Below, piece by piece: positions 1 to 62,800 of a stretch of DNA of 64,000 bases. The notes under the pieces are model-generated. The model worked only from the letters and a program-made list of their open reading frames with translations. It ran no database searches and was not told the DNA's origin. The translations under genes were made by a program, and so were the position numbers. This DNA comes from Yuukianura sp. NJ FZ-2021 (Eukaryota). The stretch spans positions 1,240,001 to 1,304,000 of the forward strand of contig CM102283.1 of the NCBI GenBank assembly GCA_046563655.1, given 5' to 3'. Numbering within the stretch: the first letter of the stretch is position 1; the number at the start of each line of letters is the position of its first letter.

Positions 1-3000
1 ACTAATTGAAAATAAAGTTAATTTGAAATTGGAAAATGGAGACTGAAGGGAGAGACTGACGAGAGGAGTTGTTGTTGTGTCGGAAGGTGGGAAGCCACTG
101 AAGTTGTGTGTGCCGAAGGGAGACGGAGAAGAGCCGAGTCGTACTTTGGGTTGCCTTGAGGTTGGGTTGCATAGGCTGTAACCCCTCAGTACTCAACGAT
201 TTTTGAAAAAGAGACAATTTTTAGTAATGGTCTTGTTAAGTACCGAGGGCTTCAGAAGCTTTTGAACTTTCCAGACATACGGTTTGCTTGAAACTGTTTT
301 GTTCAAACAGAAGTAATTCTAAACCTACTTCAGTTTGCGCTTCGTTTGCAAAAAAAAATGCAAGAGTAACTTTTGTTTGCATTTTGAAGAAGGATGTAAT
401 TGCATTTTATGTGAAAACTTTGTATTATTGCGTCCCAAAGTCAAATGAGATGCTTTTACTTCTATCTTACTGCTGGTCTGGAAGCTCCCTAGAGAAATTC
501 AACTAAATAAATTGGCAACTTTCGTCTGGAGAAGGACAAATGCAAAGTTCTTTTTGTGTGTGTGATTTTTCGAAAAATAAACAAACTTTATTTTTTTCAA
601 AAACTTTTTTTTGAGGCAAATAAATTTGCTTTTAGACAGTTGAAAGATTTATCATATATTCCACACTATAGTCAAAATTGTTATAAACTTTTTAAGCTGA
701 AGTGACAGTTTTCCAGTAACTCCAAAGTTTTTTCTAGTTCAAAACTTTTTCAAATCAAATTTTGACAGGATATCCCACTTCCAATTTTTTGATATCGTTT
801 TGAAAAAGTGTGGTTTTGCTGAACATGGCACTTTTAGTGCATAAAGATAACCGTGCCATACTTTTCCCGCCAAACTTCAAAACTTTCAAAAAAAACTTAT
901 CTAATAAACTTCGTTCGTAATAAAGTTACTTCGTGACAAAATAAAAAAAATCGAAAAAAGTTCTCAAAATATTAAATTAAAAAACATTTTTGGAACTAAC
1001 GAAAAGAAAAACAATTTAAAAAAAAAGTGCTACGAAAAAACTTTTCGACTTTTCAGCCTTACGATCTTTTATATGACCTTGTAAAAATAAAATTTTCAGT
1101 TTTCTTTCCCTAAAAATTGGAAAAGTTGTAAAGTCGTTTGGAAAAAGTTGTTCAAACAGAAAGCTTAAACAAAGAGAGTGTGAACCACAAATGACCAATT
1201 TGTGTTACAGTTTTGTGCTCAATAAATGTCAACATTTAGATATGATCTTGGTGCTTAGAGTTCACACATTTCCACTTTCTGCTTCATATGTCTCAACTAT
1301 TCCAAAATGAAAAAATTAGAAAAAGTGAAAAATGGGAAATAATGAAAAAATTATTAGCACTTTGTCACGTGAAACAAGGAAATGAAAAAATGATGAAAAA
1401 CTGTGTAAATAGCAGGAAATGAATTTTATTTCTTGTTGTTCCAAAAGTCTTCACTTTTTTGCCTCCCAAACTTTTTTGTGAAAGGGAAAGCAAACAACCG
1501 TTAAAAAACATTTTCACGCCGTTTCGAATTTCCTTTCATTTTGGCACCGTATAACTCTTCTGTTTTTATTTTTCTTTGTTCAGGATATGTCATTACGCCA
1601 AAAAACTTAGTCATGTATTGCAAAAAGTAATTTTCAGAGGACAATATTGTACATATTGATTAAAAAGTTGAATTCTGCATAGAACGAAATAACACGTAGG
1701 CACAAATCCGGTAATTTGAAAATCAATAGCACTTTGAGAGCGAGAATTAAAACGGGGAAGGAACTTCCTTTTGCAGCACTTTTCATTTCCACACAAAATT
1801 CTTCCCTAAGAACCAAAAGTGGAAAGCGTCATCGATTTTAAGTGATTGGCTTTGATTTTCAAAAACAGCAGCATTTCATAAACTTAATTGCATATAGTTG
1901 GATTAAAATGTGGTTATGTTAGGTAAATCACGTTAGCTGAAATCAAAGCAAAGTCAATGCTTGAACTAAATTTAGTTAAATTTAAATTATAATTAAGGGT
2001 AGGTTAGGTTTCTCGCTCAAAAGCTTATTGATTACAAATAAATTTTGGGTTGAAGCAAAACAACTTTGCATTAGTTGTAACCATGACGTAACCGCTGATG
2101 CCATATTCGTAACCACTCGAATGGTTACGTGTCCAACTATTGTCCAGTCTTTTAAAATCCTAACACAATGTAACCATTGCGTAGTTACTTAACAGTAGTG
2201 GTTACAACACGTGGTTACAACTGGGTCGCTTTTGTGCCGCGTCAACCGGACGCGTAAAACTTCAAAGACAAGCGACAAAGCGGAACTAACATAAACCGTA
2301 ACCTTCCGCTTTCTTTGTCGTGTTTTCTTAAACTTATTTGTGTCCTTTTGCCACGTGCGTCCTTAAAATTTTGAAATTTAGTTAACGTTGAAAAGGAAAC
2401 GGAAATCAAATTAGAAAATTTATCTGATACCAGAATCTTTGAAACTTTGTAATGGAGTGTGAAACGAACCATCGGAAGCAGAAGCCACAAGACTGCAAAC
2501 GAGCTCAATAAATGTTTAATTTGAAATTATCGAGTAGAACACAGGTCTGATTCGTTTTTTTAAACAACCTGCTTTCTCCGCTCCTTTTGAATTTAACAAA
2601 ATTTTGAAAGAAAACTGCTTTCCTTGTTTTCAAAAAGTCAACTTTGAATAAAGTGGCTCCTTTGCATTGTTTGAATTTTTTTTTGTGTCCACTTTTAGCA
2701 AGTTAAATTTTAAAAAGTGAAAGTTGAGGTTATGTGTAGCCTTGGTTGAACCAAGATTACCGTAGAGCTTCTAAATAAACGCTGGTTTCCAGAAAAGCCC
2801 AATTTTCTTCAACGTTGGGGGTAAAAATAAGGATTTAGAATAAACGCCCGGGCGTTTAGCATTTGAAGTTGCACGGTAACGTAACTGGGATGAAGAAAGA
2901 TGAAAATGGGAGAGAAAGTAAGTTGATTTGTGGCGTAAGTCTGGCGGAGGAGGGAACCATTGGTTCTCTCATCGTTCCTCCCGGGAAAATCAATCAATCA

Positions 3001-21792: not shown

Positions 21793-22741
21793 GGTCAAAA
21801 CAAAGTTTAAACTTTTAATTTAAAAAAAATTAAATATGATGTGCACTAAATAAGAATATTCTACTCGTTCACTTCAACTTCTTTGCGATCTTTTGAAATT
21901 TCAATTAGTAATGGCATTTGGAGTCTGTTGTGGATAGAAAGTAAATTGCGAAAAGAAACTGAGAAGATTGTAATTTATATACTCGAATATTGTACAGTTA
22001 GGTTCGAAACAGTCTCTTAAACTAGGCGTTATGGTAAGGGCTCTTTCATAGGAAGTCAAGGTCAGAAAAAGGTGAGATGTATTCAAGGGCACCTAGTCAT
22101 TCTAGAGCCCTTGATTAAGGGACCCTGACCTCTATTCAAAGGCCAGGGTTATCAGCATGACGCATATGTCAAAGTCGTCTCGCACTTATCAATTTCAGAA
22201 ATAAAAAGCCTAGTAATTTAACACAATTCCAACAAAGTTGGAACATCGCGGTTTCATAATGCTAGACTGTTTTTAATTAAAAAAAATATTAATAATGAAT
22301 AATAAACGATTATGTGTATATGTTATAATAAGCTTATTAATTACTCCCAATTTGCCGTTTTAGCGCTATAACTTATTTCTCCGAAAAATAAAAAACAAGA
22401 AATAGAACCATCCATTTATTTGATGAGTAAAGGAATCGGGTTTCAGAAGGAAGAAATGTAATTTCGATACGAACATTAAACTTAAGTTAGTTTTTTTTTG
22501 GGCGTTTTTTTGAGCAGTTTTGAGCTGACAATGAAATGAACTGAAATGGATTAAACGAAATAGTATTGCCGTATTCAAGTGATAATTTTATTTTAATATT
22601 CCATGGACAAAGTTTTTATTATGTGTAAAAGATGATTAGTGATTTCTCAATTAACTAGAGAGTAATGAAGGAAAGATGGAAACATAAATACTTTAAGCAA
22701 TCCTAAACACTAAGCATACTAGTGTATTAGTTTATGCTTGT

Positions 22742-25311: not shown

Positions 25312-26021
25312 GGTCAAAACGCAGTTTAAATTTTTGATTTAAAAAAAAATTGAATTGTGCACTAAGAATATTCTAGTCGTTTAAACTCTTTGTGATCGCT
25401 TGAAACTTCAAATAATGGCAGTAGAATGCACAAAGAAACACGAAAGAACAGAATTTATAAACTCGTGTGTTTTACATTTAGGTTTTAACCCATGCCCTCT
25501 CCAAAATTAAGCCTAATGGTAAAGGCCTCTTTCATAGGAAACAAAGGGCCGCAAAGCATTAAATGTATTTAAGGCGTAGGACTAAGGGCCCCTAGTTATT
25601 CCAGGGTCCTTAAGTGCCTCTGGCCCATAGTCAAGGGTCATGGCTATCAAAAAGTCGTAAATGTCACGGTACTTTCTCAGTTGAACCTGTGAATTTCAGA
25701 AATAGAATAAAAAATATTCTATTCAACACAATCGCCGCAACAAAGTTGACAACATCGCAGTTTCAGGATAAAGTTTACATTTTCAGCATGTATTTATTTC
25801 GTGCCAAGAGTATTCCACATGTATTGAATCCTTCTCAAATTGATTGACACTTCTGAATTTAACTTGATTTTAATTAAAAATTCAATAATTTTTGAAATGC
25901 AAAACACAACTTTGGCATTGATTGGGATTTCAGTATTTGCATTACTAAAGCTGATTTAGGTTTTGAACTAAAGAATTAGCTTTTAGGTCTTAAACTATGT
26001 ATTGACGACAAGGTCAATTTT

Positions 26022-28806: not shown

Positions 28807-29419
28807 TTTCCACCGTATTGAGAAAGGAATTTTCAAAACATTCAGAACTTCAAAAGCTTAAACTCCGTGCAAAACTGGAAATCCCATGAGATGCTGTTCG
28901 CTGGACAATTAAACTTCAAAGAAATGATACGGAATACTTGTGTGCTCAACTTTGTATTATCATGTATAGTTATTCGCAGACTCTCACAAGGGAAATTAAC
29001 ATCGTTGTTGACTACGGGCTGGCTTGCGAATATTTTACGCTCAACCACAAAAATAAGTAGAGCATTGAGAACAAAAAAGGCTATCTAATTGCTTAAAACT
29101 ATTATTTGACAATATGAAATTAGTAAGTATTACTTTATAAAATTGTTTAAAAAAAGTATGAACAAGTTCCATCGATTTGTCGCGATCATGAATCGCGATG
29201 GCTCATCCCGATCGACGATTCCCTCACATTGATATAAATAAACAAAGGATTCAACTTAACAAAACAGTTTTAATTAATAATTCTGGGGTTAATTTGGTTT
29301 TTAATTAGAAGTTCCACCAGCTTTTGCACTGTAAAAAAAACAACTTACCGATTGGAAAAAACTCAATGTTATGAACTAACTAAGCTGTATTGTAATCTAG
29401 TGAAAATGCCAATTTTTAT

Positions 29420-34291: not shown

Positions 34292-37186
34292 TTATCTAAG
34301 GTATGGATACCACATATTGAACTGTTTCATTTGATACTGCTTTGACCCCACTAAAACAATTACGCGATGACCCTGCTTCTGCATTCTTTTTTTAACTGAA
34401 AATTCGGTGCCCATCGTCACGAGAGTTATGATGACGCAGGCCGCGTAAATGTAAAAAAGCACGCGGATTTTCGTTTTCAAATTGAGTGCCTTTGGTACTT
34501 TTGATTGGTCCTCCAGTTTACCATACTTGACTCGGTAAAACTCCATGTAATGCCGCGTTTCGATAGTTTTCGCCAATTCATCCAACTTATCATTGATTCC
34601 CGACTCTACAAAAGCTGATAGATGGCGCAACAGAGTTTCTCGTGCGATGTGTGACGGTTGTACCGCAATGCCCCACTTTGTGCTTCTGAGCAGTTGCGTT
34701 TTGTCTTCAAGAATGTAGAAGTTAGGCTGCGATGATCTATCGGGGTCAAATCTGTCCATGTACTTCATTCTCGTGAGGAGATCAACAGAGTCGATATACA
34801 GAGTAGCATTGCAACTGTAAAGTTCATCTGTAATATCAGTGTAGCACTCATGGGCCTTCGTGTGTTGCGCCAATTTCAGCAGCATTTTACCCTTGCGACT
34901 GTTAATCATGGCGGGGTCAACGGACTCCAATGAGTTGGTCGCAGCCATTTGTGAGTACAACTCCATGCGACGGTTCATACACTGCGGAATGTCGTCGATT
35001 AGTTGAAAGCGACTTTTGAAGGTGACATAGTCTGCGCACGTCCGAATGAATCCACTATCGACCAATGGGTCATCGGCGATCCAAGGCCGGTTAAGGGCCA
35101 CCGCGGCAGTTTTCATTGGTGTGTGAAGTAAGTCATTGGGTTTACAACATTCAACTTTATTCCTGGCGTAGTGTTCGATGATAGAAACATAGCCTAAGTC
35201 GACTGCTGCTTCAAGCGATTCGATACCGGATTGGTCGAGGGGTTTGACCAATGACGTTATGACAGTTCCCTTATAGCCGTTCGATAGTACAATACCGGTG
35301 ATGATAAAGGCAGCAAAAACTGGCGAGAACGACAAAAGTTTAAATTTTTTGTTTGTGATGCTGAATGACTCTTCGAAGAATATGGATATAAGTAGAAACG
35401 GGAATACGTCTTTGAGTTTGATATACTGAGGCAGAAGACAGTACAGGACACTGGGCACGACGCATGCGCAGATGAGAAAAATCCAAACTGCGTGGCTAAA
35501 TGGTTGAACGTAGTCGTATAAGGCCATTCGAGTGTTGAGTCCGGAACAGGTCGTTGCGGCTCGGTTGACATCGGCAACAGATATGAACAGAACGTCTGAG
35601 CCTATGTGTGTCGACATGTAAGGCAAAAGGCTCAGCTCAATCACCACCTCATCTTTTTTGAAAAACGTCTTAAAAAGCTCGTAAGCGACCATTTTGGTCT
35701 CCGCATCCATCATTCTACTCGAATTGAAACCTAAATTAGATATTATATTAAAATAATATTTAGTTATATAAACTAACAAAAATTATGGTAGTTCCTAACC
35801 TACCTAATAATTAATAATTATAATTAAGTTTTAATTTGACTTTAGAAGTTATTCAAGCTGAAATATCTGACCTTGGTTCAAAAAAGAAATAATTTGGAAT
35901 TGTACAAGCGGTCGAGACGGGTAATAAATTTGTTCGTGTGGTTTTGGCGGGTCTTTGAAATGCGAGTAGATCAGCATTTTCACGTCCGTTTTTAGGAAGT
36001 TCGCAACTTCATTTTGAACTCGAGCGCTGTTCAAACCTGAGGGCAGAAAATAACTAACATTTCCCAGAAAAATTTAAAGAACAATAAAAAAAAATTGCAT
36101 TTTTGAATTTCTCTGGGAAGTTAAAAGTTTTGTTTTCGATACAAATCACATTATTTTATGACTTATTAAGTGCGACCTTTTTTTTTATTCTTAACAATTT
36201 TAAATTTTTTGAAACTTGCCTTGTCTAGTTGTTACCCATTCGCTGTACTCTTTGAAATACAAGTTTTCCGGAAGTGAAACTCCGATTAAGCAGCTAACAC
36301 CTTCAATCTCGCCATTGGTTCCATACGTCGACCAATCCGGAACTACCGTTACTATCGGCAAATAGAAAAACGACATCCAGTTTCTAATGTCATTTTCAAA
36401 GTCGATTTCTTCTCCTTCCGTGACATCTTCCTGTCGTTTCAAATAAAACGTTTCTAGCGTCACTAAAATAGTGATGTAAATTTGAGTTGGAAAAAATGGC
36501 GGAAAGGAAAACTCTCTGTCGTCATTTTCGTCAAGGATCTGCTGGTACTTTTTTTCATCAACCGTGGCGTTATTCCCGGTGACTTCGATACTTTCATTAC
36601 CAACAGCTTCAGATGTTGGTTTAGCATTTTCATTAGCGAGATTGACGTTCTTATTCATGAATTTGTCTTTTTCATGGCCAGGGTTTTCAGGTCGGCGCGT
36701 TTTGTTTCTGGCTCGATCATTTTCGCGCCATTTCAACTCCTGCAGGTCAGCCCTGCTCCAGAAGTGGTTCAAGTACCAGTAGATGTCCTCCTCCTCTTTG
36801 ACGTTCACCTCTCCAGATTCTGGATACACTCCCATGACTGCAACACAGTTGACCCCACGGCGCATGTAGTTTTGCAGGACGTAGACGCAAAGGTGGGCGT
36901 TGTAGTTGAACGTGTAGTTTGCACCAAACGTCCACTTCTGCTCTTCTCCGCACGAGGTGTTGTCGTACGGGTCAAACCGGGGAGTAGCTATGACCAAGGG
37001 AACAACTGATGAAAATATGTCAGAGTTATTGGAGTACAGAATGAGGTGAATGAAGCAACGTTCCCACTGTTTTACAATGGGATTTATGTTTAGCAGAGCG
37101 GGAACGGATGTCCCGGTAGATGAATTTAGAAGACAGGTAAACGTTAGTAACGATGTCAAAACGGCAGAGAAATAGGTGAGGTACAT
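34292..37186 (-). CDS. Divergent IR-like protein 2 (exons 37186-36220, 36036-35872, 35730-34292)
   Basis: Paralog of IR-like 1 (YDYVQPFSHAVW, LSNGYKGTVITS, MWYPYLR). Intron 1 has a GC donor (AG|GCAAGT) at the homologous position; intron 2 is extra. Confidence 0.7.
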
Positions 37187-38046
37187 GTTGAAAAAAAAAT
37201 GTGGAATGATTTGCTGTTCTGAGATGACTTTGACTTTGACTTTGCAATATCAAAAATTCCAATTCCGTGCTTAGGGTGGGTGTTTTTAGAGAAAAAATAT
37301 TTCCGAAAAAGTAAATCCCGAGTGTACTAACATTCCCAAGGGGGTATATTTTTTATTTCCATTTTCATGTTTGCTTTGCCCTAAAAAACTGGCCTTGTTT
37401 CATTCCTCTGTTCGTTGTTAAAATGAAAAGGTAAAAGGTCAGCTTCAATGCCAAATTAAATCGACCGTTGTAAACTCCGTACTGGAGGTAGCTCAAAAAT
37501 CAGGGTCACTTACGCGAAAGTTGTTTGGCTGAATTTGACGGCTTATATTCGGCAATACGGCCACTCGATTTTTTACGATTACAATATCATTTTACGTCAA
37601 CTTTTGGATGCAGATTCCAAATCTGAAATCCGTTTTGAATAATAGGGATTGCAAAAAGAATGATATAATAACTATAAATATGCATGACAACTTAGTTTAA
37701 TCAGATGATTCAATGAATCAGACACCTTTTCATAGAATTTATCTTTTATGACTCCTCATATACTTAACGATGAGACAGGATAATAACACTTCAGTGAGGT
37801 CGTTGATTCCATAAGCTCAGATTACTTATTTCCAACACTACTTGACTAACTAACCAATTAATTAACTAGCCTAAACTATAACTAACTTTGGGTTAAGTCG
37901 ACGGAAGAGTTTCAAGCTTGAACAGTCTAAAATTTGAAATTCCAAATTCTCAGTTGGTGAATGTAACTATTGACAGTACCTTAGTGCAATTCAGCTAGGC
38001 GTAGTTCAGACGTCAATTCTTGGTGACTGCAGGAGGTCGCCACAAA

Positions 38047-39761: not shown

Positions 39762-41609
39762 TTATTATAATAGCGAAGCTATTATGATAAAAGTGGTTTG
39801 TCTGTCTGTCTGTCCGTCTGTCTGTCTGTCTGTCTGTCCGGATTAATTATCTCAGAAACTACTGGTCCGATTTGATTCCAGTTTTCACCAGTGACCATGT
39901 CATGACCCGGGCTTGGTCACTATTGAATATGACCCCCGTGTGTCAACTCCTTCCGGGTCAAAGGTCAAGGTTAACCGGTTTCATCCCCGGTAATATGGAA
40001 AATGACCTCTACAAAAGTTGTTCATCTCATCAAGGGGAACAACTTTTGTGTGTAATGTGTGACCCTAGGTCACCTGCTTCCGGGTCAAAATCGATTTCAA
40101 AGGTCATTTGTAATGCAAGTGTGTGTAAGAAAAACTCTGCTTGTGAGACTGGAAAGGCAATTGGCATGGGACTTGGTTCTCTGCTTAGCAAAAAATCTAT
40201 TACGCAGTTGACATATACACTTTACACACTCATGCACTGTGTCCACCGGGTGTCACCTGTCACTTGCCGGGTGTCACCTGTCACCTGTCACTTGCCGGGT
40301 GTCACCTGTCACCTGTCACTTGCCGGGTGTCACCTGTCACCTGTCACTTGCCGGGTGTCACCTGTCACATACCGGGTGTCACCTGTCACCTGTCACGCCT
40401 CAGCTGTCACGTCTCACCTGTCAACACCCCCTGGGGGGGCGGGAAAGTGGGGGGAACACCCCCCCACTACCCCGGGGGGGGGGCGGGAAAGTGGGGGGAA
40501 CACCCCCCACTACCCCGGGGGGGGGCGGGAAAGTGGGGAAAACACACCCCTACTCCCCGGGGGGGGGGCGGGAAAGTGGGGGGAACACACCCCTACTCCC
40601 CGGGGGGGGGGGCGGGAAAGTGGGGGAAACACACCCCCGCGCTTCCTGGGGTGCGGAGCAAAAAAGCGGGGGAACACACCCTCACACCCCTCGGGTGACC
40701 CACCCTCACATCCTGGGGTGCGGAGCAAAAAAGCGGGGGAACACACCTCACTCCCCCCGGTGGGGGGAGGCGGGAAAGTGGGGGGAACAAACCCCCTTCG
40801 GGGAGCCTATTGCTTCGCTATTATCAGTATGGGCGGTTTACAACCGGTTTATTATAATAGCGAAGCTATTATGATAAAAGTGGTTTGTCTGTCCGTCCGT
40901 CTGTCTGTCTGTCTGTCCGGATTAATTATCTCAGAAACTACTGGTCCGATTTGATTCCAGTTTTCACCAGTGACCATGTCATGACCCGGGCTTGGTCACT
41001 ATTGAATATGACCCCCGTGTGTCAACTCCTTCCGGGTCAAAGGTCAAGGTCAACCAGTTTTATCCCCGGTAACCGGGAAAATGACCTCTACAAAAGTTGT
41101 TCATCTCATCGAGGGGAACAACTTTTGTGTTTAATGTGTGACCCTAGGTCACCTGCTTCTGGGTCAAAATGGATTTCAAAGGTCATTTGTAATGCACGTG
41201 TGGGTACAAAAAACTCTGCTTGTGAGACTGGAAAGGCAATTGGCATGGGACTTGATTCTCTGCTTAGCAAAAAATCTATTACGCAGTTGACATTATACAC
41301 TTTACACACTCATGCACTGTGTCCACCGTGTGTCACCTGTCACTTGCCGGGTGTCACCTGTCACCTCTCAGCTGTCACGTCTCACCTGTCACCTGTCACG
41401 CCTCAGCTGTCACGTCTCACCTGTCAACACCCCCTGGGGGGCGGGAGAGTGGGGGGAACACACCCCTACTCCCCGGGGGGGGGCCGGAGAGTGGGGGGAA
41501 CACACCCCTACTCCCCGGGGGGGAGGCCGGAAAGTGGGGGGAACAAACCCCCTTCGGGGGGCCTATTGCTTCGCTATTATCATTATGGGCGGTTTACAAC
41601 CGGTTTATT
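39762..41609 (+). mobile_element. Head-to-tail dimer of a DINE-1/Helentron-associated non-autonomous element (39762-40850 and 40849-41609)
   Basis: Each unit has a subTIR ataatagcgaagc and its inverse gcttcgctattat near the 3' end, a (GTCY)n microsatellite, a terminal stem-loop cggtttacaaccg and TT junctions. Internal tgtcacc and G-rich minisatellites. Confidence 0.8.
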
Positions 41610-42488
41610 GTTTATTGATTTTCCAGGTTGTGATATTTCTTTTGAATTAAGTTTTAGAGTTTAATATTTCTTTTATTAATTAATTTTGAACAATGGGTAA
41701 AGGTAACTGTTTTTTCTGGCAATGCAAGAACATGATTCTAACGTTTTGAGAAGAAAAAGGAAGTTTCTGGGCAAAGTAAAGTCGAGAGATATGAAGCATT
41801 CGGATATTCCCATACATTTGTGAAAACGAAATGGTCAAAGGCCATACCTCCTAAAGTTCACTAACTAACTTTTCCTCTATTTCTGTTCAATATTTTAAAC
41901 GTTTAAATGTCTTGAAACAATTGACTACTTCATATTTCCTATCCTTAGTTTGGCAATAGGAATGTTGCCAAATGCCATGCAAATAAAAACACTACACCCA
42001 TTAACAAAACATGCTTCTAGTATTAAGATGCTGAAAAGACAAAAAAAAATTATTGTTGAATGTTTGTTTGATGAAAAAGGTGTACACACTTTAATAAATT
42101 TTTTACCCTTACGTTTCATCAATTAATTGCGTGTTAAGGAAGCAACTACTGACACTTTTTTCACAAAACCTATTTGGAAATTAAAAAAAAATTGTTAAAA
42201 CTTGTTATACCTAACTTCAAGGTTAATGGAGAGTGGAACGATAATGGAAACTTTGCGTGTTTAATTAAAAGTGTTGCTAGGTGAAAAGCATATTTAATGC
42301 GGAGCAGCTCCAACAAACCACTTTACAACATTTTTAGACAACATTTCAGAGTTGTTTTTGAACATTTCCAACCTCATTATAATTTTGCTTAAGGCTTTCA
42401 TAGGTTGTTATTGAGTCGTTGTTGACAAATCCCAATTATTTTTCTATTTTTAGATTTAATTTAAAAAAAGTAGCAATTTTTTTTTTAA

Positions 42489-43410
42489 ATGGCTGACGAC
42501 ACCTTACCAGATTTTGTGCAGGACATGGATGCCATTCTGCACCACAAAGCAGAATGGTCGAAAGGAGCTCCACCCAACTACAGCACAGTGAACAAAATAT
42601 ATTACTTTCATAGTAATTCTTTTTGTTTCAGAAAAGTTAATGTTTTTATGAAAACATTTAGACTTGAAATTTTCTGGAATAAATTCGATAGTGAAAAACA
42701 AAGGATTTTGTATTTACGGAGGAGACTTTTTTCAACAAAACATGACTAACAATATGGAAAAGATCCTCCAGAGAAGATCTTATTGCAAAAATAGGATATT
42801 TTTGAATATCAAGGTTTTTGAAATTCGCTACTTTTTCTTGCACATTTTTTTGAAATTTTGAACAGAACGATGGATCACCCCAGAGAAAGGTTCCTTGGAG
42901 GATATAATCACCAACTTGATCAAAAACTGGGAAAAGGAGTTGCTGCACAAAGCAAATCCAGCCGATTGGGTGACGACTGCGCCCGAACTGTTCCGATTGG
43001 GCGTCAATGGAGGTCCCTTGAAGGGGCTGGCAGAAATAGGGTACCTTGGAGCTTACAATGTATTCATAGGAGACACGGAGCACTACTGTGCAGGCAAGGT
43101 CACAGATCCGGCTCAAGCCGATCGGATTTTTCGCACAGCGTTGCCAAAGGGATTTGCGTGGGAATGCCTCCAAGTTTACTCAAAACCACCAGAGGTGGCT
43201 TTCAAATGGCGCCACTGGGGCTACATGGAAGGAGATCTGGAATGTCCAGGACGAAATGGGGAAATCAAGGTCAAAGGTCACGGCAAAAAAGTTGAAATTT
43301 TTGGAATGAGCACGGTGACGTTGAATGACAAGTACCAGATAATTGAAATGCAACATTTCTTCAGACCGGATGATCTTTTGGAACAAATGATTGAAGCGCC
43401 GACGGTTTAG
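42489..43410 (+). CDS. Pathogen-related (plant/fungal PR-family, SnoaL/NTF2-like) protein, copy 1 (exons 42489-42612, 42866-43410)
   Basis: GSLEDIITNLIKNWEKE..HK...DW; VNGGP; GAYN; GFAWECLQVYSKPP.VAFKWRHWGYMEG, matching the family signature FAWEVLEVYSGPP.V.F.WRHWG. Phase-1 intron. Confidence 0.85.
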
Positions 43411-47581: not shown

Positions 47582-48496
47582 ATGGCTGACAACACCTTAC
47601 CAGATTTTGTGCAAGACATGGATGCCGTTCTGCACCACAAAGCAGAATGGTCGAAAGGAGCTTCACCCAACTATAGCACAGTGAACAAAATATACTTTGA
47701 TGGTAAAATATTTTTCAAAAAATTTGCCACGTATAAAACTTCACCTAAAATGCAGAATTTTTAATTTTCGGAAATAATTCCATCTTAAAAAAAATCTTTC
47801 AAGATTTGCATTTATATGCAACATTTTGTTAAATAAACTTCGACTATTTTGGAAAAGCTCTGGTGGAAATTTCAATTCAGAAATTGAATATTTCTGGGCA
47901 TAGTGTTTTTGAAGTTTTTAAATTTTGCAAACATTTTTAAATTTTGAACAGAACGATGGAACACACCAGAGAAAGGTTCGCTAGAGGATATAATCACCAA
48001 CTTGATCAAGAACTGGGAGAAGGAATTGCTGCACAAAGCGAATCCAGCTGATTGGGTGACATTCTCACCCGAACAGTTCCGATTGGGCGTCAATGGAGGT
48101 CCCTTGAAGGGACTCGCTGAAATAGGATCCCTCGGAGCGTACAATATATTTATAGGAGACACAGAGTACTACTGCGCAAGCAAGGTCACTGATCCCGCTC
48201 GAGCCGATCGGATCTTTCGTACAGCGTTGCCAAAAGGCTTTGCGTGGGAATGCCTCCAAGTTTACTCAAAACCGCCAAAGGTGGCGTTCAAATGGCGTCA
48301 CTGGGGCTACATGGAAGGAGATCTGGAATGTCCCGGACGAAATGGAGAAATGAAGGTCAAAGGTGACGGCAGAAAAGTTGAAATTTTTGGAGTGAGCACG
48401 GTGACGTTGAATGAAAAGTACCAGATAATTCAAATGGAGCATTTCTTCAGACCGGATCATCTTTTGGAGCAAATGACTGAAGTGCCGACGGCTTAG
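47582..48496 (+). CDS. Pathogen-related (SnoaL/NTF2-like) protein, copy 2 (exons 47582-47702, 47952-48496)
   Basis: Close paralog of copy 1; intact frame. Confidence 0.85.
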
Positions 48497-49432: not shown

Positions 49433-50331
49433 ATGGCTGACAACACCTTACCAGATTTCATACAAGACATAGATGCCATTTTTCACCACAAAGCAGAGTG
49501 GTCGAAAGGAGCTCCACCCAACTACAGCACAGTGAACAAAATATACTTTGATGGTAAAAAAAAGTTTTCAGAAAAGCTACAAACTAAAACTAACAAAAAA
49601 AAAATCAGAATTTTAAATTTTCGAAAATAATGCGATATTTTTAGAAAAGTTTTTGAGGATTTGTATTTCTGTAGAAGATTTCCAATTTTCCAGAAGGGAA
49701 ATTCTAATGCAGAAATTGGACATTCTGGTCATTGTGTTTTTCAATTTTTTAATTTATACAATTTAATTTTTTTTAATTTTGAACAGAACGATGGAACACA
49801 CCAGAGAAAGGCTCGCTAGAGGATATGATCACCAATTTGATCAAGAACTGGGAGAATGAGATGCTGTACAAAGTGAATTCATCTGATTGGGTGACGATTA
49901 CACCCGAATTGTTCCGATTGGGCGTCAACGGAGGTCCCTTGAAGGGAGTCGCAGAAATAGGATCCCTTGGAGCTAACAATGTACTCATAGGGGATACAGA
50001 GTACTACTGCGCAAGCAAGGTCACTGACCCAGCTCGCGCCGATCGCATCTTCCGTACAGCGTTGCCAAAAGGCTTTGCATGGGAATGTCTCCAAGTTTAC
50101 TCAAAACCACCAAAGGTGGCGTTCAAGTGGCGTCACTGGGGCTACATGGAAGGAGATCTTGAATGTCCCGGACGAAATGGAGAAATCAAGGTCAAAGGTC
50201 ACGGCAAGAAAGTTGAAATGTTTGGAATGAGCACGGTGACGTTGAATGAAAAGTACCAGATAATTCAAATGGAGCATTTCTTCAGACCGGATCATCTTCT
50301 GGAACAAATGATTGAAGCGCCGACGGCTTAG
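49433..50331 (+). CDS. Pathogen-related (SnoaL/NTF2-like) protein, copy 3 (exons 49433-49553, 49787-50331)
   Basis: Paralog with an intact frame; GAYN is changed to GANN. Confidence 0.85.
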
Positions 50332-52604: not shown

Positions 52605-53533
52605 ATGGCTGACAAGACGTTACCAGATTTTATGCAAGACATGGATGCCATTCTGCACCACAAAGCAGAATGGTCCAAAGGAACTCCACCCAACTTTAGC
52701 ACAGTGTACAAAATATACTTTGATGGTAAAGTATTTTTCAGAAAAGTTGCCACGTATTATAAACGTTAACATAAAATTCAGAATGTAAAATTTTTGGGAA
52801 TAAGTCGATATTAAAAAAAGTTTTTGAGGATTTGTATTTATGTAAAAGATTTAGTTAAATAAACTTTTTTTTTAGATTTTTTTAGAAAGCTGTAAGGGAA
52901 ATTCGAATGCTGAAATTAACATTGCTGGACATTGTGCTTTTGAAATTGTTAATCTTTAAAAAACATTTCTTTTTGAAATTTTGAACAGAACGATGGAATA
53001 CCCCAGAAAAAGGTTCCCTAGAGGATATGATCACCAACTTGATCAAGAACTGGGAAAAGGAGTTGCTGCACAAAGCGAATCCAGCTGATTGGGTGACATT
53101 TTCACCCGAACTGTTCCGATTGGGCGTCAATGGAGGTCCGTTGAAGGGGCTCACAGAAATAGGATCCCTTGGAGCTTATAATGTATTCATAGGAGACACG
53201 GAGCACTACTGTGCAAGCAAGGTCACTGACCCAGCTCGCGCCGATCGTATCTTCCGTACAGCGTTGCCAAAAGGCTTTGCGTGGGAGTGTCTCCAAGTTT
53301 ACTCAAAACCACCAAAGGTGGCGTTCAAGTGGCGTCACTGGGGCTACATGGAAGGAGATCTGGAATGTCCCGGACGAAATGGAGAAATCAAGGTCAAAGG
53401 TCACGGCAAAAAAGTTGAAATTTTTGGAATGAGCACGGTGACGTTGAACGACAAGTACCAGATACTTGAAATGGAACATTTCTTCCGACCGGATCATCTT
53501 CTGGAACAAATGGTTGAAGCGCCGACGGCTTAG
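52605..53533 (+). CDS. Pathogen-related (SnoaL/NTF2-like) protein, copy 4 (exons 52605-52725, 52989-53533)
   Basis: Paralog with an intact frame and splice sites. Confidence 0.85.
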
Positions 53534-56534: not shown

Positions 56535-56542
56535 TATATAAA
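56535..56542 (+). promoter_or_regulatory. TATA box of the knottin peptide gene
   Basis: TATATAAA about 90 bp upstream of ATG 56628. Confidence 0.5.
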
Positions 56543-56627
56543 TGCTGGATATTTTGCGACAAGTAAATTAATCCGATTTTTTGAAGATCAAGTCAATTTT
56601 TATCCAAGCTCTGATACCCGGGTGAAA

Positions 56628-59600
56628 ATGAAGTTCTTTGCATTCTTGGTTTTGGCCACAGTCCTAGTCATCTCGGCCAATGTGGTCCAACAGGCTGAAG
56701 CAGTAATTAGCAATTCAAATATTCTTATTGTCACATTAATTATATTAATATTAATTATATTTTATTATATTTTATACATACAGAGACAACCAACCAAACA
56801 CTTGTAAAGTTTTTACCTTCAACCAGTATTCCGGAGCAAACGAATTGTTTTCCAAAATCAAACTAATCAACCTAATCAACTTGTAACATTGGATTACGAC
56901 GTTCGTCTATCAATATCAATTACAACTGGAACAGCTGATCTTACGTAAAAGTAAGTTCACATGTAAATGTTGACTCGAAGGTGCATATCCTATCCTACCT
57001 TGCATAAAGTCAAAAGATACTGGCACCACTTTGGTATATATCTAGGATATGCTGAATTGATGTTCTCTGATGACCTCAACCGATGATCAAAAAACTCGTG
57101 GTAGGAAAAGAAAATCCAAAAACGAAGATTCTCCCTCCTCAAAAGCGATGAAAATGGGTGATTTCGATCCTTCTACACTTCTCGCAGCCATAAACAAATT
57201 AAACGAAAATGTCAATGCAATCAACTCTACAATGGCCACCAACCACGCTGAGATTACCCGACAATTTCAATCCTTGAGTGCGGAGGTGACTACTATTAAA
57301 AATAGAATCCATGCTGCTGAAGATATCCAGAAGACACTCACTTCCCATGTCAATTCGCACGATTCAGACTTGGAGAGATTGCAAATTGCAATTAACAAAA
57401 GTAATTTAATCCTACACGGTCTCCAGTACACAAGCAACGAAACTACCGACTCCCTTAAGCTCGAACTTGACAGAATCTTTGCACTGGCCCTTCCAAATAT
57501 CAGTATTCCACTCATAGACGACAACTACCGTTTGGGTCGCCCAAGTCCGCAGAATCCATCAAAGCCAGTGAAGATCATTTTCAAATCACTGGAAGCTAGG
57601 AATACAATATGGAAAAATCGGAATCTCATCAAAAACGTGTCACCCCACATGAACATTACCCAGGATCTTCCACTCCAGACCAGGAAGAAACTTGCCGCCC
57701 GTCGTCAAAACCCGAACATGACCGAAATGCCGATCCAGAACCAGTCTAATCAAATTACGTACTCTCAAGCTACAGCACCACTTCCGAGTCAAACCACCTC
57801 TGGTTTTACACGCAGTAGCCTCACTCCACGTTCTCCGAATCGTCCTCCACAACCAAACCATAACTCAGCATGACTAACAACTAATCCCACAAGCAGAAAT
57901 CAGCTAAAAATTAGTGCACTAAATGTGTGTGGTTTCAATTCTAAGTGCGACTTAATAAAATTATTTCTTGACATGTACGCCATTGACATTCTTTGCATCT
58001 CTGAAACTCATCTCAACGTTGAACATCCTCCTCGTATCATTGATGGCTACTATTTCCTTCACAGTGACCGACTGTGGCAAGCGAAGGGTGGGGTTGGTAT
58101 CCTAATCCGATCATCTTTAAAATTTACACAAAAAGCAATAGTTTTGACTGAAAACCGTCAATTTGAGGCGATCAGTGCCTCCGTCCAACTTAATTACAAC
58201 AAATCCATCATCATTTCTAGTGTCTACAGAATTCCAATTTACACTTCAAAGGCAATCGATGCAGACCTCAACTCCATGACAGAACTTTTTAAAGAACTTG
58301 CGCTCTCCAAGAAAAATTGTTTTGTTCTTGGTGATTTCAACTTAAACAAAACGTACATTCCAGCCAAGTGTCACGCCAATTTCAAACAAACTACCTCCAT
58401 CTTTAACCAACTCATCACCAACCCAACCAGAGGCAGTTCAACACTTGATCTAATTTTTACTAATAATCCTAGCCTAATAGAAAACACAAGTGTATTTGAT
58501 CCCAGTATTTCAGATCACCGTGCTACCCTAATTTCAGTCAACCTAGTGAAACCCAAACTCCCAAAAGTGAACATTCTTTACGAAGACTATGCCAACTTTG
58601 ATTTTGAAGAATTTGGCCTGAAGTCCACTTTCACTACCTTCAATCACACTGAAAGCAACTTAGACTTGCAATTTCATGAATTTATTTCCAAAGTCAGCAG
58701 TAACTTCAGTGACACTATCAAACTTAAGAAATTATCGTTTACCCAACGCACGACTCCACTTACGATCTCAAGTAAAACGAAAACTCTTATCGCTGAGCGT
58801 GACTTACTGGCGAAAGATGCAAATTTGTCCAACCTTCAGAACGTGAAGCTCAACAAATTAAAAAAATTAGTGAAAGTGAATGTGAAATTAGACATGAGAG
58901 ACACACTAAATATTGCGATCAGTAAGCTTGGTCCTCACAAGGCAATAAACAAAATTCGCCCAAAAGCACAAAAACCAAAAATGTGCCTACACTTCACTCC
59001 TGACGAAATTAATGACTACTATATTTCAATTACAACTCCAAAATTTATTTCAAGTGTACTTCCGGTTAAACCTCCCGCAATCATTACACCCCTTGAACAA
59101 TTCAACTTCACCAAAATCACAACATCGGCACTGATCAAAACATGGAAGACAAGCAAGAATAAACTGAAAAAAACTAAAGATCAGTGTGGGTTCTCCAATT
59201 GGATTCTTTCCTATTGCATTGAAGCACCAAACATTTCAAATCAATTAGTTCACATTATTAACCAAAGTTTGACAAGTGGAGTCTTCCCACATTCGCTTCA
59301 GAACTCGGTTGTGATCCCGTTGCCAAAAGTTTGCAACCCAAAGCATCCTTCTGAAACACGGCCAATATCACTGCAACCACTCATCGCAAAATTATGTGAA
59401 AAATTCGCACATCAGCAGCTGAAAACTTTTTTCAATCGCCACAGTCTAATACACAAAAATCAATTCGGCTTTAGACAACACCACTCCACCACCACCGCTC
59501 AATTGGCTCTAACTGAGCTAGTTTATTCTAAATTACATCTTGGTGAAGTCTGCCTAATCATCTCCTTGGATTTGCAAAAAGCATTCGACACGGTTGACAA

Positions 59601-60938
59601 AAATATTTTAATTGAGAAACTCAAATGGTACAATGTTTCAACTCCATGGTTCGAATCTTACCTCAACAATAGGACTCAACAAGTAAACATCAAAGGGAAC
59701 CTTTCACAGCGAAAAACAACAATACTCTCAGTGCCACAGGGATCCATCTTAGGCCCGCTGTTATTTTCAATCATGATCAATGATTTACCATGGATAATCA
59801 AAGATGGATCTCCAATACTATTCGCCGATGACAATAACATTGTCATTGGAGGGAACCCAAAATTGATTGATCAATTAATTCTGAGAGCGGAAGTCATCAT
59901 TACCGCAATTGTTCAATGGATGAAGATCAACCATCTCAACATCAATATTGAGAAAACGAAGGTGCTACTGGTTGGAAACAAAAATACTGTGAAAAAAATT
60001 GGTCTGATCACCCTAAATATTGGAAATACTACAATCACAAGTGTAACTTCCTTCAAGACACTTGGACTGATACTAGATAACTCATTATCATGGTGTGAAC
60101 ACATAAGTGAAGTGGCTAAAAAGTGCAACAAAATCTTGTGGTCTTTTTACCCTATTCAGGACTTTCTATCCGAGTTTAACAGAAAACTAATGATAACTTC
60201 ATACGTTCTACCAATTCTAAACTACATGATCATACTTTGGTCCAACTGCAATAAGTCGACTTTCAACTGCGTCAACAAAATATTTAGACGGGCCATCCGA
60301 TTCATTTTCAAAATGCGCAAAAGAGACTGCGTTCGTTCCAAAGTCAACTTTACACTTAATTGGCTATTTCCAACCAACACCGGCATTGTAGAACACCTAC
60401 TCATCTACCGAAACTTGGTTTGCAACAAAATTCCGTACTTTGAGTCCATCACCTCAGAAATTTCGTCTCAGTCGTCCAATACAACATCTACCAGATCCGG
60501 TACATACGTCGTAAATAACAGGAAATACCACCCGAAATCGTTCGTTCCGACCGTGTCGCGTCTCATTAATTTATTACCCTTGGAATATCGTCCACTACTA
60601 ACCAGTACCAGTCCCTCCAAATTGCGTACAACCATAGCAGCGTACTTCCTAGAGAGGCAGCAAATCTCCGAACTTAACTATTTAAATTCTCTAGATGATA
60701 GCCTAGAATCGCTCCTTTACAATTTTAACTTACCTTAAAAAAAACAAAACAAACAACAACAAAAATTAATGAACTTTTAATTCAATTACATCTACTCATA
60801 TTTTTAACTAATTTTACAATTTACACCTTAACTTAAACTAACGTATCGCAATACTTCATTCATTACACTACTCACTACTTCTTATTTCACTGCAAGCATC
60901 CACGATGTAACTACCTGCATGCAGGGTATCAGTGGCAA

Positions 60939-60970
<32 letters not shown>

Positions 60971-61171
60971 ATTATTAACATAAGTTATATTAATATACTA
61001 ACTGTATTATATTAATAATTTAACTTGTGTATTTTCCGTCAGTGCGTCGGCCACGACGGAGCTTGCGTTGGAGCCAATGGGTCTCAAGGAAACTGCTGCG
61101 GTGGAATGCACTGTCAAAAGAATGATCCTTCATGGGCTCAGGGAAGATGCTACTACAACCCTGGAAAATAA
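56628..61171 (+). CDS. Alo-3/psacotheasin-like knottin (ICK) antimicrobial peptide precursor (exon 1 56628-56702, exon 2 61043-61171)
   Basis: Exon 1 = MKFFAFLVLATVLVISANVVQQAEA|gtaatt. Exon 2 after ttttccgtcag| = [48 protein letters not shown] pattern, NGSQGNCC and W..G.C as in beetle Alo-3. AATAAA at 61203. Confidence 0.88.
57070..57873 (+). CDS. LINE ORF1 (coiled-coil + RRM-like nucleic-acid-binding protein)
   Basis: Basic RGRKRK patch, heptad-rich region, NLILHGL, YRLG, PVKIIF, ITQDLP motifs typical of L1-transposase-like ORF1s. Confidence 0.85.
   Translation: MTSTDDQKTRGRKRKSKNEDSPSSKAMKMGDFDPSTLLAAINKLNENVNAINSTMATNHAEITRQFQSLSAEVTTIKNRIHAAEDIQKTLTSHVNSHDSDLERLQIAINKSNLILHGLQYTSNETTDSLKLELDRIFALALPNISIPLIDDNYRLGRPSPQNPSKPVKIIFKSLEARNTIWKNRNLIKNVSPHMNITQDLPLQTRKKLAARRQNPNMTEMPIQNQSNQITYSQATAPLPSQTTSGFTRSSLTPRSPNRPPQPNHNSA
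57874..60738 (+). CDS. LINE ORF2 (AP endonuclease + reverse transcriptase); open from the codon right after the ORF1 stop, with no AUG before the first EN motif
   Basis: LNVCG, ISETHL, GGVGI, GDFN, TLDLIF, SDH; RPISL, QFGFR, DLQKAFD, VPQGSILGPLLF, FADD. Confidence 0.93.
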   Translation, partial: LTTNPTSRNQLKISALNVCGFNSKCDLIKLFLDMYAIDILCISETHLNVEHPPRIIDGYYFLHSDRLWQAKGGVGILIRSSLKFTQKAIVLTENRQFEAISASVQLNYNKSIIISSVYRIPIYTSKAIDADLNSMTELFKELALSKKNCFVLGDFNLNKTYIPAKCHANFKQTTSIFNQLITNPTRGSSTLDLIFTNNPSLIENTSVFDPSISDHRATLISVNLVKPKLPKVNILYEDYANFDFEEFGLKSTFTTFNHTESNLDLQFHEFISKVSSNFSDTIKLKKLSFTQRTTPLTISSKTKTLIAERDLLAKDANLSNLQNVKLNKLKKLVKVNVKLDMRDTLNIAISKLGPHKAINKIRPKAQKPKMCLHFTPDEINDYYISITTPKFISSVLPVKPPAIITPLEQFNFTKITTSALIKTWKTSKNKLKKTKDQCGFSNWILSYCIEAPNISNQLVHIINQSLTSGVFPHSLQNSVVIPLPKVCNPKHPSETRPISLQPLIAKLCEKFAHQQLKTFFNRHSLIHKNQFGFRQHHSTTTAQLALTELVYSKLHLGEVCLIISLDLQKAFDTVDKNILIEKLKWYNVSTPWFESYLNNRTQQVNIKGNLSQRKTTILSVPQGSILGPLLFSIMINDLPWIIKDGSPILFADDNNIVIGGNPKLIDQLILRAEVIITAIVQWMKINHLNINIEKTKVLLVGNKNTVKKIGLITLNIGNTTITSVTSFKTLGLILDNSLSWCEHISEVAKKCNKILWSFYPIQDFLSEFNRKLMITSYVLPILNYMIILWSNCNKSTFNCVNKIFRRAIRFIFKMRKRDCVRSKVNFTLNWLFPTNTGIVEHLLIYRNLVCNKIPYFESITSEISSQSSNTTSTRSGTYVVNNRKYHPKSFVPTVSRLINLLPLEYRPLLTSTSPSKLRTTIAAYFLERQQISELNYLNSLDDSLESLLYNFNLP

Positions 61172-62800
61172 TTCAACACAAAATCTAAATGCAATTTAAA
61201 CGAATAAATCGATTTGTGCAATTAAAAAAATCGGTCTTATTAAAAAATAAATCCTCAAGCACTTTTGGTCAAATAAATCTTATTAGATTGGCACCAGCAA
61301 ACTTTTTTTTTGTGAAAACGTGATTCCGTAGATGTGAATTAAACTTCACATGAACGGCTCAGTAAAACCCAACAAAACGTAATCGAATCATTCTTGAGAA
61401 CATTTTGTTGTCGTCAAGACGCGCACCGATAGAGTATAACTATTCGAATACGAATATTCGAATACGAAGCCCTCTTTTTGGGACCTTCGAAATCCGAATA
61501 CCAATTCGAAGTATTCGAATAATTCTGCGGGAATACAATCTGGAGGAGAGGTTTGAAATATTTACTATACGTGTGCATTGTAACTGGCACAGTTTACAAT
61601 CTGTCTCACTCTGTTTTAAAAATTACAGTCTGTTTTGATTACTTTTACGTAATTAAATTAACAATTGTAATTATCAGAGTCTCAAAAAATATTTTCTATA
61701 AACTACCGAAATTATTTATATACATGTTTACTAAAAAAAACTGGCAAAATATTTGCTGAAATATTTAGTGAAAACAACGTTTCTGAAAATCACTGCAGTT
61801 AGACTCCCAAAAACATACAAATCATAAGGTTTAACCTTATAATTCTTACTCGAACCTTTAATTTGTGCTGTCGATAGACACTGGAAGTAATTTCCGGTAC
61901 AAATTTATACCCAATTTTTTTTAGTAAATCCGTTGGAATTTGGTAAGTAATTTCGGCGACTTCTTTACAAAAATCTTACCTGAAATAGTATGGTCATCGT
62001 TTTCTAGGACACCTCATACCGAAAAATATTCGTTTTTGGCCAAAATTTGGCTCAATAACTACAATTTTCTCAAAAACCCCCAAATATTTAGTAAATATTT
62101 CTTATTTTCAAAAATATTTATAAAAATTAATATTTAAAATATTGATAAAAAATATTTTTTGGGACTCTGGTAATTATAAAGAGACAATGAGTAAAGAGCA
62201 TAATAATTCAAAGAAATTGGTGGATTTAAGGTTTACCGATGTCCAAAGTAAAAGTTCGGACACTACATCAATTTGGCACATCAAAATAGGTGGAAGTATC
62301 TGGCAATATCAGTATCCACTTCTATCCAGCCATTTCTTCCGGATAAAACCGAATGAACTATACTATCCACTGGATGTCCACTGGACAAAACGTCAAAAAA
62401 TTGATATCCAGCAACTCTGTCTAATACCTCTCAGAATGGATGACACTTGACATTAAAAAAAACTTGACACGTAGTCCAATTGATTTTTTTTATCGAAATT
62501 TAGTCTGGGTAGACTAATCTATTTGTTCAAAGTTCACTCAAATTAGACCGTTTCAGTGCCTCAACTTTAACAATTTGTATGCAACCTATACTAAAGTGTG
62601 GAAAAGGAAAACAATAATCTTGTGGGATACTGATATGACAGGAATTCTCATAAGAGTTCAATATCACAAGACCGATCTCACCAAGATCAAGGTCTCATGA
62701 CGTCGAAGAGCTCCGCGTTTTGACGAGTGTCACTTGATTTCACACACATTAGTTTGCAGCAAGGCCGGTTACTCCAACTCAAAAGTTGTTAAAATTGGCA

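Follow-up and report, generated by a model that had tools for sequence, protein, structure and literature searches.

A putative two-exon gene for an Alo-3-like knottin peptide with a sense-oriented LINE in its intron in Yuukianura sp. NJ FZ-2021

Can two short coding segments that lie 4.3 kb apart, with a retrotransposon between them, belong to a single gene for a secreted knottin peptide? The question is raised by a stretch of 64,000 nucleotides from Yuukianura sp. NJ FZ-2021 (assembly GCA_046563655.1, contig CM102283.1, positions 1,240,001 to 1,304,000 of the forward strand). The whole of this stretch is called the window below, and positions are counted from its first letter. An initial annotation of the window had proposed that a signal-peptide exon and a six-cysteine exon are the two halves of a gene for a peptide resembling the antifungal peptide Alo-3, split by a long interspersed nuclear element (LINE). 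The best explanation overall, to which a probability of about 0.8 is assigned, is a two-exon gene for a secreted knottin of the Alo-3 kind, with a sense-oriented LINE in its intron and a role in defense. The anatomy of the gene, the homology of both exons to full-length precursors, and the domains of the LINE were observed directly. The features of the gene are as follows.

56535..56543, + strand: TATA-like box in the context CTATATAAATG, about 90 nt upstream of the ATG; a putative promoter element
56628..56702, + strand: coding part of exon 1, encoding the signal peptide P0002; assigned by translation and by likeness to the pre-regions of homologues
56703..61042, + strand: single intron of 4340 nt, phase 0, GT...AG; about 140 nt of AT-rich original intron, the remainder being the LINE
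60996..61002, + strand: branch-point-like TACTAAC, 40 nt upstream of the acceptor and followed by TATTTTCCGTCAG; a predicted function
61043..61171, + strand: coding part of exon 2, encoding the 42-residue knottin peptide P0001, and TAA; assigned by translation and homology
61203..61208, + strand: AATAAA, 32 nt past the stop codon; the likely poly(A) signal of the gene

Translation of 56628-56702 from the ATG at 56628 gives the 25-residue peptide MKFFAFLVLATVLVISANVVQQAEA. The ATG appears in the context GTGAAAATGA, with A at -3. The peptide has a basic start followed by a hydrophobic core, carries Ala at positions -3 and -1, and ends in AEA in phase 0, directly 5' of the donor GTAATT. The -3/-1 Ala rule and the homologues predict a secretory precursor that would be cleaved at this point. 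On the acceptor side, TACTAAC is followed by TATTTTCCGTC and an AG directly before position 61043; the stretch preceding exon 2 reads TATTTTCCGTCAG. Translation of 61043-61171 gives a 42-residue peptide with the Cys pattern C-6-C-9-CC-4-C-11-C and a C-terminal GK before the TAA codon. The coordinates of both exons, the phase-0 AEA terminus of the first exon, and the size and Cys content of the second had all been given correctly in the initial annotation, as had the absence of exon 2 from the list of open reading frames (ORFs). From stop to stop, the frame that holds exon 2 spans only 50 codons, and it contains no ATG, so ordinary ORF lists miss it. An in-frame stop lies 8 codons upstream, and exon 2 therefore needs an upstream exon. 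When the transcript is read from exon 1 without splicing, a 59-residue product is obtained up to the first intronic stop. The paralog check proposed at the outset was run within the window, where tblastn with both exon peptides gave only self matches (below E 0.1) and no paralog was found. A foreign origin of the gene was also judged by composition. The GC content at third codon positions is 0.47-0.60 in the exons versus 0.37-0.51 in the neighboring genes; the exons are within or near the range of the neighbors, and a foreign origin on this basis was rejected.

The exon 2 peptide was searched against 5.8 billion proteins, with 8 candidates scored, and in a filter-free search against 1.84 billion proteins, with cluster representatives collected at E ≤ 0.001. 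All 8 scored candidates are matched at E values of 1e-13 to 1.4e-20 with identities of 74-93%, and none of the 8 was flagged as the window's own protein. The second search returned 33 cluster representatives. Six matches are named, and the taxonomic range given here is that of these six. They come from the tardigrades Ramazzottius varieornatus (RvY_16174 and RvY_16173, neighboring locus tags) and Hypsibius exemplaris (BV898_04740), the nematode Panagrolaimus davidi (A0A914QSM2), the bdelloid rotifer Adineta vaga (I4U23_011791), and the gall wasp Belonocnema kinseyi, whose protein is named "hainantoxin F5-22.36-like" at NCBI. The six share 74-88% identity with the window peptide along its entire mature length. 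They are full-length precursors of 62-68 residues, and five of them possess a hydrophobic pre-region of 22-25 residues whose last two residues, QA, EA, or MA, immediately precede Cys1. This layout is the product expected from a splice between 56702 and 61043 and supports the joining of the two exons. Four of the named relatives are encoded on contigs of 0.7-162 Mb (no figure is available for Panagrolaimus), which argues against contamination. RvY_16173 (P0009) lacks Cys1, the hydrophobic pre-region, and a signal peptide, and Tyr replaces its Cys2; this protein represents either a tandem copy that has decayed or a faulty gene model. When prokaryotic relatives were sought, the pattern of a 10-sequence alignment matched 55 stretches in genome contigs, and none was confirmed. 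The locus tags of the named orthologues, the NCBI name of the wasp protein, and three short peptide motifs returned no mention in a literature search that did not reach supplementary tables. With the same reach, a search for knottin and tardigrade together surfaced only one general review of horizontal gene transfer.

The exon 1 peptide was aligned with the pre-regions of the homologues and the scores were compared with those of 500 shuffles. The score is 47 against the pre-region of P0026, versus 21 ± 4 for the shuffles, none of which reaches it. For the pre-region of the Hypsibius protein P0008 the score is 38 versus 19 ± 4, and a single shuffle reaches it. The pre-region of P0021, 25 residues in length, resembles exon 1 in a common MK...SA...AEA frame. 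The likeness of exon 1 to some of the pre-regions supports the splice. The N-terminus of P0005 is not signal-like and reads like a translated AT-rich intron ending in a CAG codon, and this gene may contain an intron near the same junction between signal and mature peptide.

It might be argued that the two exons are not partners, exon 2 being a relic or a part of another transcript and the upstream signal-like ORF being coincidental. In AT-rich DNA, a short hydrophobic ORF with GT behind it is a common occurrence, and the joining of the two exons is a prediction. This explanation is nevertheless highly improbable. It leaves exon 2 without an in-frame ATG behind its upstream stop, and the only upstream candidate is in the right phase, has an ATG in good context, and lies behind a TATA box. 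The same candidate encodes the peptide that beats 499 and 500 of 500 shuffles against two homologue pre-regions. Between 61.2 and 64 kb there is no ORF of at least 120 codons that could use exon 1 instead.

The 10 closest sequences were aligned and the conserved positions were tabulated. The window peptide keeps all 22 of the 22 invariant columns of this subfamily alignment, and there is no sign of decay on this account. Variation is found mainly at positions 2, 6, 7, 9, 11, 17, 20, 32, and 33. The segment from Gly21 to Pro29 (G-M-H-C-Q-K-N-D-P) is invariant, as are Trp31, Gly34, Cys36, Tyr37, Tyr38, and Gly41, with the exception of one His-to-Leu replacement. The identities do not follow phylogeny: the tardigrade pair is 83% identical to each other, whereas the Ramazzottius peptide is 88% identical to that of the window. 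This pattern fits a small number of free positions under strong constraint and would not, taken alone, be proof of horizontal transfer. The net charge (K + R - D - E) is +1 for the window peptide, which bears out the near-neutral charge described initially, and ranges from -1 to +2 across all 10 members. The C-terminal GK had been read as an amidation signal, and this proposal is strengthened by the comparison. The 12 close single-domain relatives end in G, GK, GKK, or GRK, that is, in Gly followed by 0-2 Lys or Arg residues, and all six named orthologues end in Gly and 0-2 basic residues. A conserved end of this kind is what a precursor destined for carboxypeptidase trimming and amidation would be expected to show.

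Among solved structures, the closest is that of Alo-3 (1q3j_A) from the beetle Acrocinus longimanus, a structure reportedly described by Barbault et al. in 2003. It is matched at an E value of 0.0099 with the single sequence and of 0.0031 with a 17-sequence profile, values that are significant and modest, and it is the only significant solved relative of the window peptide. All six Cys residues align, the N-G-S-Q-G-N-C-C block and the K..P.W..G.C pattern are held in common, and 17 identities fall within a stretch of 37 residues. Like that of Alo-3, the predicted mature peptide of the window begins at Cys1. The Alo-3 chain is shorter, with 36 residues versus 42, so that three one-residue gaps are needed in Alo-3, and the window peptide differs further in being near-neutral rather than cationic and in its Gly-Lys amidation-type end. 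Of the features that define Alo-type peptides, the window peptide has the six Cys arranged as C-C-CC-C-C over some 35-45 residues and a predicted secretory precursor. Three others are lacking, namely a match to the Pfam domain of Alo-3, the Cys spacing of the arthropod Alo peptides, and a cationic charge. In Pfam, no family is matched by P0001 at E ≤ 1. Weak matches to Pfam families of inhibitor cystine knot (ICK) toxins are scattered among the 17 aligned members, with Toxin_35 found in 2 of the 17 at a best E value of 0.0082. As judged by sequence comparison, the window peptide is of the broad Alo-3 kind and falls in a distinct, so far undescribed subfamily, which has longer loops and is missed by Pfam.

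That Alo peptides form a family with a patchy distribution was already known (PMC10051947, PMC4874388, PMC9865768, and PMC6406012). PMC10051947 reports Alo peptides from Collembola, Coleoptera, Hemiptera, Hymenoptera, Diptera, spiders, and a mite, with a Cys spacing of C-6-C-7..9-CC-3-C-10-C and a mature peptide of 34 residues. Gains and losses of the family are described, and horizontal transfer is discussed, in PMC4874388 and PMC10051947. The arthropod precursors resemble the window precursor in being short, about 61-62 residues long, and in combining a signal peptide with one six-Cys knottin, whereas the last two loops (4 and 5) of the window peptide are each one residue longer (PMC10051947). 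The subfamily of the window peptide also differs in extending outside the arthropods. The venom knottins of Leptopilina and Ganaspis, LhKNOT among them, are related to Alo-3 and possess a signal peptide. These wasps are cynipoid Hymenoptera, as is Belonocnema, and modeling led to the proposal that LhKNOT has a defensive role (PMC9865768). By the same description, which is the basis of the comparison, LhKNOT has a 36-residue core with a cationic "CPC clip" (R1-S3-R14), the basic residues of which are missing in the window peptide (PMC9865768).

An AlphaFold2 model of the window peptide was built on the alignment. The mean predicted local distance difference test (pLDDT) score is 89.7, and a two-stranded hairpin is predicted at residues 22-25 and 34-38. 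About 30 of the 49 matches retrieved from the PDB with Foldseek are knottins by title, including asteropsins, spider toxins, tachystatins A and B, the cellulose-binding domain of carbohydrate-binding module family 1 (CBM1), and Alo-3, which is aligned with 47% identity. The match of this model to knottins is suggestive, not significant. Tachystatins A and B and the fungal CBM1 domains appear at ranks 4, 6, 7, 9, 15, 24, and 25, with TM-scores on the query (TMq) of 0.33-0.62 and E values above 0.1. They are small polysaccharide-binding knottins, and the window family possesses invariant aromatic residues of an exposed type in W31, Y37, and Y38. There is, however, no significant similarity in sequence between them, and the Pfam family Tachystatin_A is matched by only 1 of the 17 members, at an E value of 0.58.

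The domain is also found outside single-domain precursors. Among the 33 cluster representatives, 12 contain 2-14 copies of the domain, with Pro/Ala-rich linkers in the sequences inspected. One relative, P0032, consists of a signal peptide, a knottin, and a chitinase of glycoside hydrolase family 19 (GH19; PF00182, E 1.7e-8, 35 bits versus a cutoff of 25.5). Fusions of hevein with chitinases provide an analog of this arrangement, and the tachystatins, which are ICK antimicrobial peptides of horseshoe crabs, bind chitin. By analogy with these two cases, the GH19 fusion suggests that the domain could be a cell-wall or chitin-binding module.

The proposed two-exon defense gene would operate as follows. 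Exon 1 would supply the signal peptide only, and exon 2 would supply the whole 42-residue mature peptide. The precursor would be secreted cotranslationally, cleaved after AEA, and folded oxidatively to a knot with 1-4, 2-5, and 3-6 disulfides. Removal of the terminal Lys42 and conversion of the Gly would leave a C-terminal amide at Pro40. The product would be an extracellular defense peptide, most likely antifungal. Given the near-neutral charge and the invariance of the C-terminal half, the peptide is more likely to recognize a conserved target, for example chitin or a different cell-wall constituent, by way of Trp31, Tyr37, and Tyr38 in that half than to attack membranes through bulk positive charge. 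A complete LINE in the sense orientation would have landed in the AT-rich part of a short phase-0 intron. Its effect would be at best an intron lengthened about 30-fold and at worst the truncation of most transcripts at the poly(A) signals of the LINE.

The features of the LINE are as follows.

56776..60972, + strand: sense-oriented, full-length-looking LINE, with a 5' end somewhere from about 56776 to 57060 and a 3' end at the end of the tail
57070..57873, + strand: LINE ORF1, 267 codons from the first ATG, TGA stop; weak matches of coiled-coil type
57874..60738, + strand: LINE ORF2, 954 codons, endonuclease and reverse transcriptase; assigned by Pfam and motifs
60940..60972, + strand: LINE 3' tail (TAAA) x 8.2; with the adjoining ATTAAA at 60938 it contains 8 hexamers that resemble poly(A) signals on the sense strand of the gene

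Two ORFs of 270 codons (57061-57873, first ATG at 57070) and 954 codons (57874-60738) are found between the exons. ORF2 matches the Pfam families Exo_endo_phos (PF03372, E 2.1e-10) and RVT_1 (PF00078, E 7.2e-31) and contains the SETH and SDH motifs of an apurinic/apyrimidinic (APE)-type endonuclease and the FADD motif of a reverse transcriptase. These two domains in a sense-oriented element agree with the original view that a LINE splits the gene. The best protein relative of ORF2 is only 34% identical, and its matches in the PDB are distant reverse transcriptases only. ORF1 gave only weak matches of coiled-coil type, all below the Pfam cutoffs; no zinc knuckle and no relative in the PDB were found for it. 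The tail at 60940-60972 is a perfect repeat of (TAAA)8.2 with 100% matches. The insert is a sense-oriented retrotransposon of the type without long terminal repeats, apparently intact. It is probably young, given the open state of its ORFs and the absence of decay in the host gene. ORF1 and ORF2 share one frame and are split by a single TGA (57868-57876), and the first ATG of ORF2 is codon 34, inside the endonuclease domain. With no ATG before the endonuclease motifs, ORF2 would depend on read-through or another unconventional start, or the stop would have changed recently.

The intron would be about 140 nt long without the LINE and is 4340 nt long with it, and its A content is 34.8%. The LINE sits upstream of the branch point in the AT-rich part of the intron. 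It interrupts neither the splice signals (donor, branch point, pyrimidine tract, and acceptor) nor the coding sequence, and the TATA box and poly(A) signal of the gene are likewise intact. No second copy of the LINE that would fix its ends and its target-site duplication was found in the window with blastn or tblastn. The flanks at 56733-56774 and 60978-61022 share an AT-rich similarity of 42-45 nt, with a score of 42 versus 22 ± 4 for shuffled sequences and none of 300 shuffles reaching it; this similarity lies inside a low-complexity tract of the ATTAT type.

Several observations weigh against a working defense gene of the Alo-3 kind. The splice across 4.3 kb is a prediction from sequence alone. 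The likeness of exon 1 to the pre-regions is not general, since for 8 of the 16 testable pre-regions (17 were examined) more than 25 of 500 shuffles reach the score; several of the nonmatching pre-regions are probably miscalled N-termini. The likeness to Alo-3 put forward initially is sustained by the best solved relative and its six aligned Cys residues, yet the loop lengths differ, and none of the 17 aligned members has a match at E ≤ 10 to PF11410, the Pfam domain given for Alo-3 in PMC4874388, in a search where the filters of HMMER could suppress matches that are very weak. All 49 Foldseek matches have E values above 0.1 (0 of 49 at E ≤ 0.001), and Alo-3 appears only at rank 30, with a TMq of 0.44. 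No target-site duplication can be defined at the flanks of the LINE. Conservation across phyla combined with a near-neutral charge is unusual for an antimicrobial peptide and fits a function of the ligand or toxin type equally well. The sense strand of the intron contains 14 AATAAA or ATTAAA hexamers, of which 8 are clustered at 60938-60966 in the LINE tail and its junction, and the allele could be silenced or hypomorphic through these hexamers.

The hexamers lead to the explanation that the gene is real and that this allele is disabled. Transcripts would end at the poly(A) signals of the LINE or be elongated poorly, and the 59-codon read-through product or nothing would be made. Sense-oriented, A-rich LINEs are known from work on human L1 to lower the levels of host transcripts, and the element here is in the sense orientation with intact ORFs and has lengthened the intron from about 140 to 4340 nt. 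Against this explanation, the splice signals, the coding sequence, and all of the invariant residues are intact, although a young insertion would leave them so either way, and the sequence therefore cannot decide on silencing. A disabled allele is a serious possibility that is put at clearly less than even odds.

The conservation and charge of the subfamily raise a different explanation, in which the peptide is not antimicrobial. It would be a conserved endogenous ligand or channel modulator, an ICK peptide of neuropeptide-like or toxin-like type that coevolution with a receptor would have held almost constant. Identities of 74-93% across four phyla, the near-complete invariance of Gly21-Pro29, a net charge of -1 to +2 in 10 of 10 members, and a conserved amidation-type C-terminus are consistent with such a role. 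So are the toxin name of the wasp orthologue and a search of the ESM Atlas, in which the best score of the window peptide, 0.88, is to spider-toxin clusters (Toxin_12), below the threshold of 0.9 for a lead. The sole characterized relative by sequence is, however, the antifungal Alo-3, and one relative is fused to a GH19 chitinase. The 2-14 domain copies in 12 of the 33 relatives, with Pro/Ala-rich linkers in the sequences inspected, give the domain the look of a binding module, not of a hormone. Tardigrades, rotifers, and free-living nematodes are not known to be venomous. This explanation is considered unlikely, and the secreted defense knottin is preferred.

The remainder of the window contains other genes and repeats; no Rfam family and no tRNA were found in it. 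Two tandem, intron-split genes for oxidases linked to flavin adenine dinucleotide (FAD), of the berberine-bridge-enzyme type (FAD_binding_4 and BBE), lie at 19492-25338 on the - strand. One exon-sized ORF of these genes matches only 4 proteins at E ≤ 1e-10, the best being a metagenome protein with 47% identity; the named matches are bacterial (Phycisphaerales, 35%; Brevibacillus, 33%). The pair looks like a duplicated, intron-bearing gene that was acquired horizontally. Two divergent ionotropic-receptor-like paralogues lie at 26022-28857 and 34292-37249 on the - strand, with large ORFs of 573 and 496 codons and upstream ORFs of 299 and 349 codons, respectively. They have no Pfam match and only weak matches in the PDB to AMPA/glutamate receptors; the 573-codon ORF has an Atlas score of 0.97 to mostly arthropod clusters, some of which are labeled ionotropic receptor or Lig_chan. 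A 182-codon ORF without a Pfam match appears in four copies on the + strand (42862-43407, 47948-48496, 49783-50331, and 52985-53533) that are 88-92% identical. These copies are interleaved with pieces of tandem carboxylesterase genes at about 43.8-55.7 kb in a locally amplified block. Two adjacent GC-richer units at 39791-41664 on the + strand share about 69% protein identity, are Pro/Gly-rich, and contain internal repeats of the "VSPVTC" type; they may represent a repeat element.

An Alo-3 kind of peptide and ordinary transposon biology are known; the added interest is the undescribed subfamily conserved across phyla. For annotation, the locus is likely a real, short gene of the defense type that gene finders would probably overlook, with coding exons of 75 and 129 nt around an intron of 4.3 kb. 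It also offers a natural test of the effect of a sense-oriented LINE rich in poly(A) signals on a tiny host gene. Being near-neutral, knotted by prediction, and probably amidated, the peptide might also attract interest as a stable scaffold for an antifungal agent or a binding module. The finding links the beetle antifungal peptide Alo-3 to nearly identical, uncharacterized peptides of tardigrades, nematodes, rotifers, and wasps. Since rapid divergence is the norm for antimicrobial peptides, the conservation seen here points to a specific, conserved target. A wider proposal, held tentatively and with low confidence, is that the subfamily defined by the C-6-C-9-CC-4-C-11-C spacing, a near-neutral charge, and an amidation-type end is conserved like a hormone, with the G-M-H-C-Q-K-N-D-P core common to arthropods, tardigrades, a panagrolaimid nematode, and a bdelloid rotifer through either one invariant target or horizontal movement. 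The domain doubles as a module in multicopy secreted proteins and in a GH19 chitinase. A single invariant target, whether a fungal-wall or chitin epitope or a receptor, would make this the most conserved "antimicrobial-type" peptide across the protostome phyla; alternatively, the peptide would have moved horizontally among the micro-animals of soil and moss.

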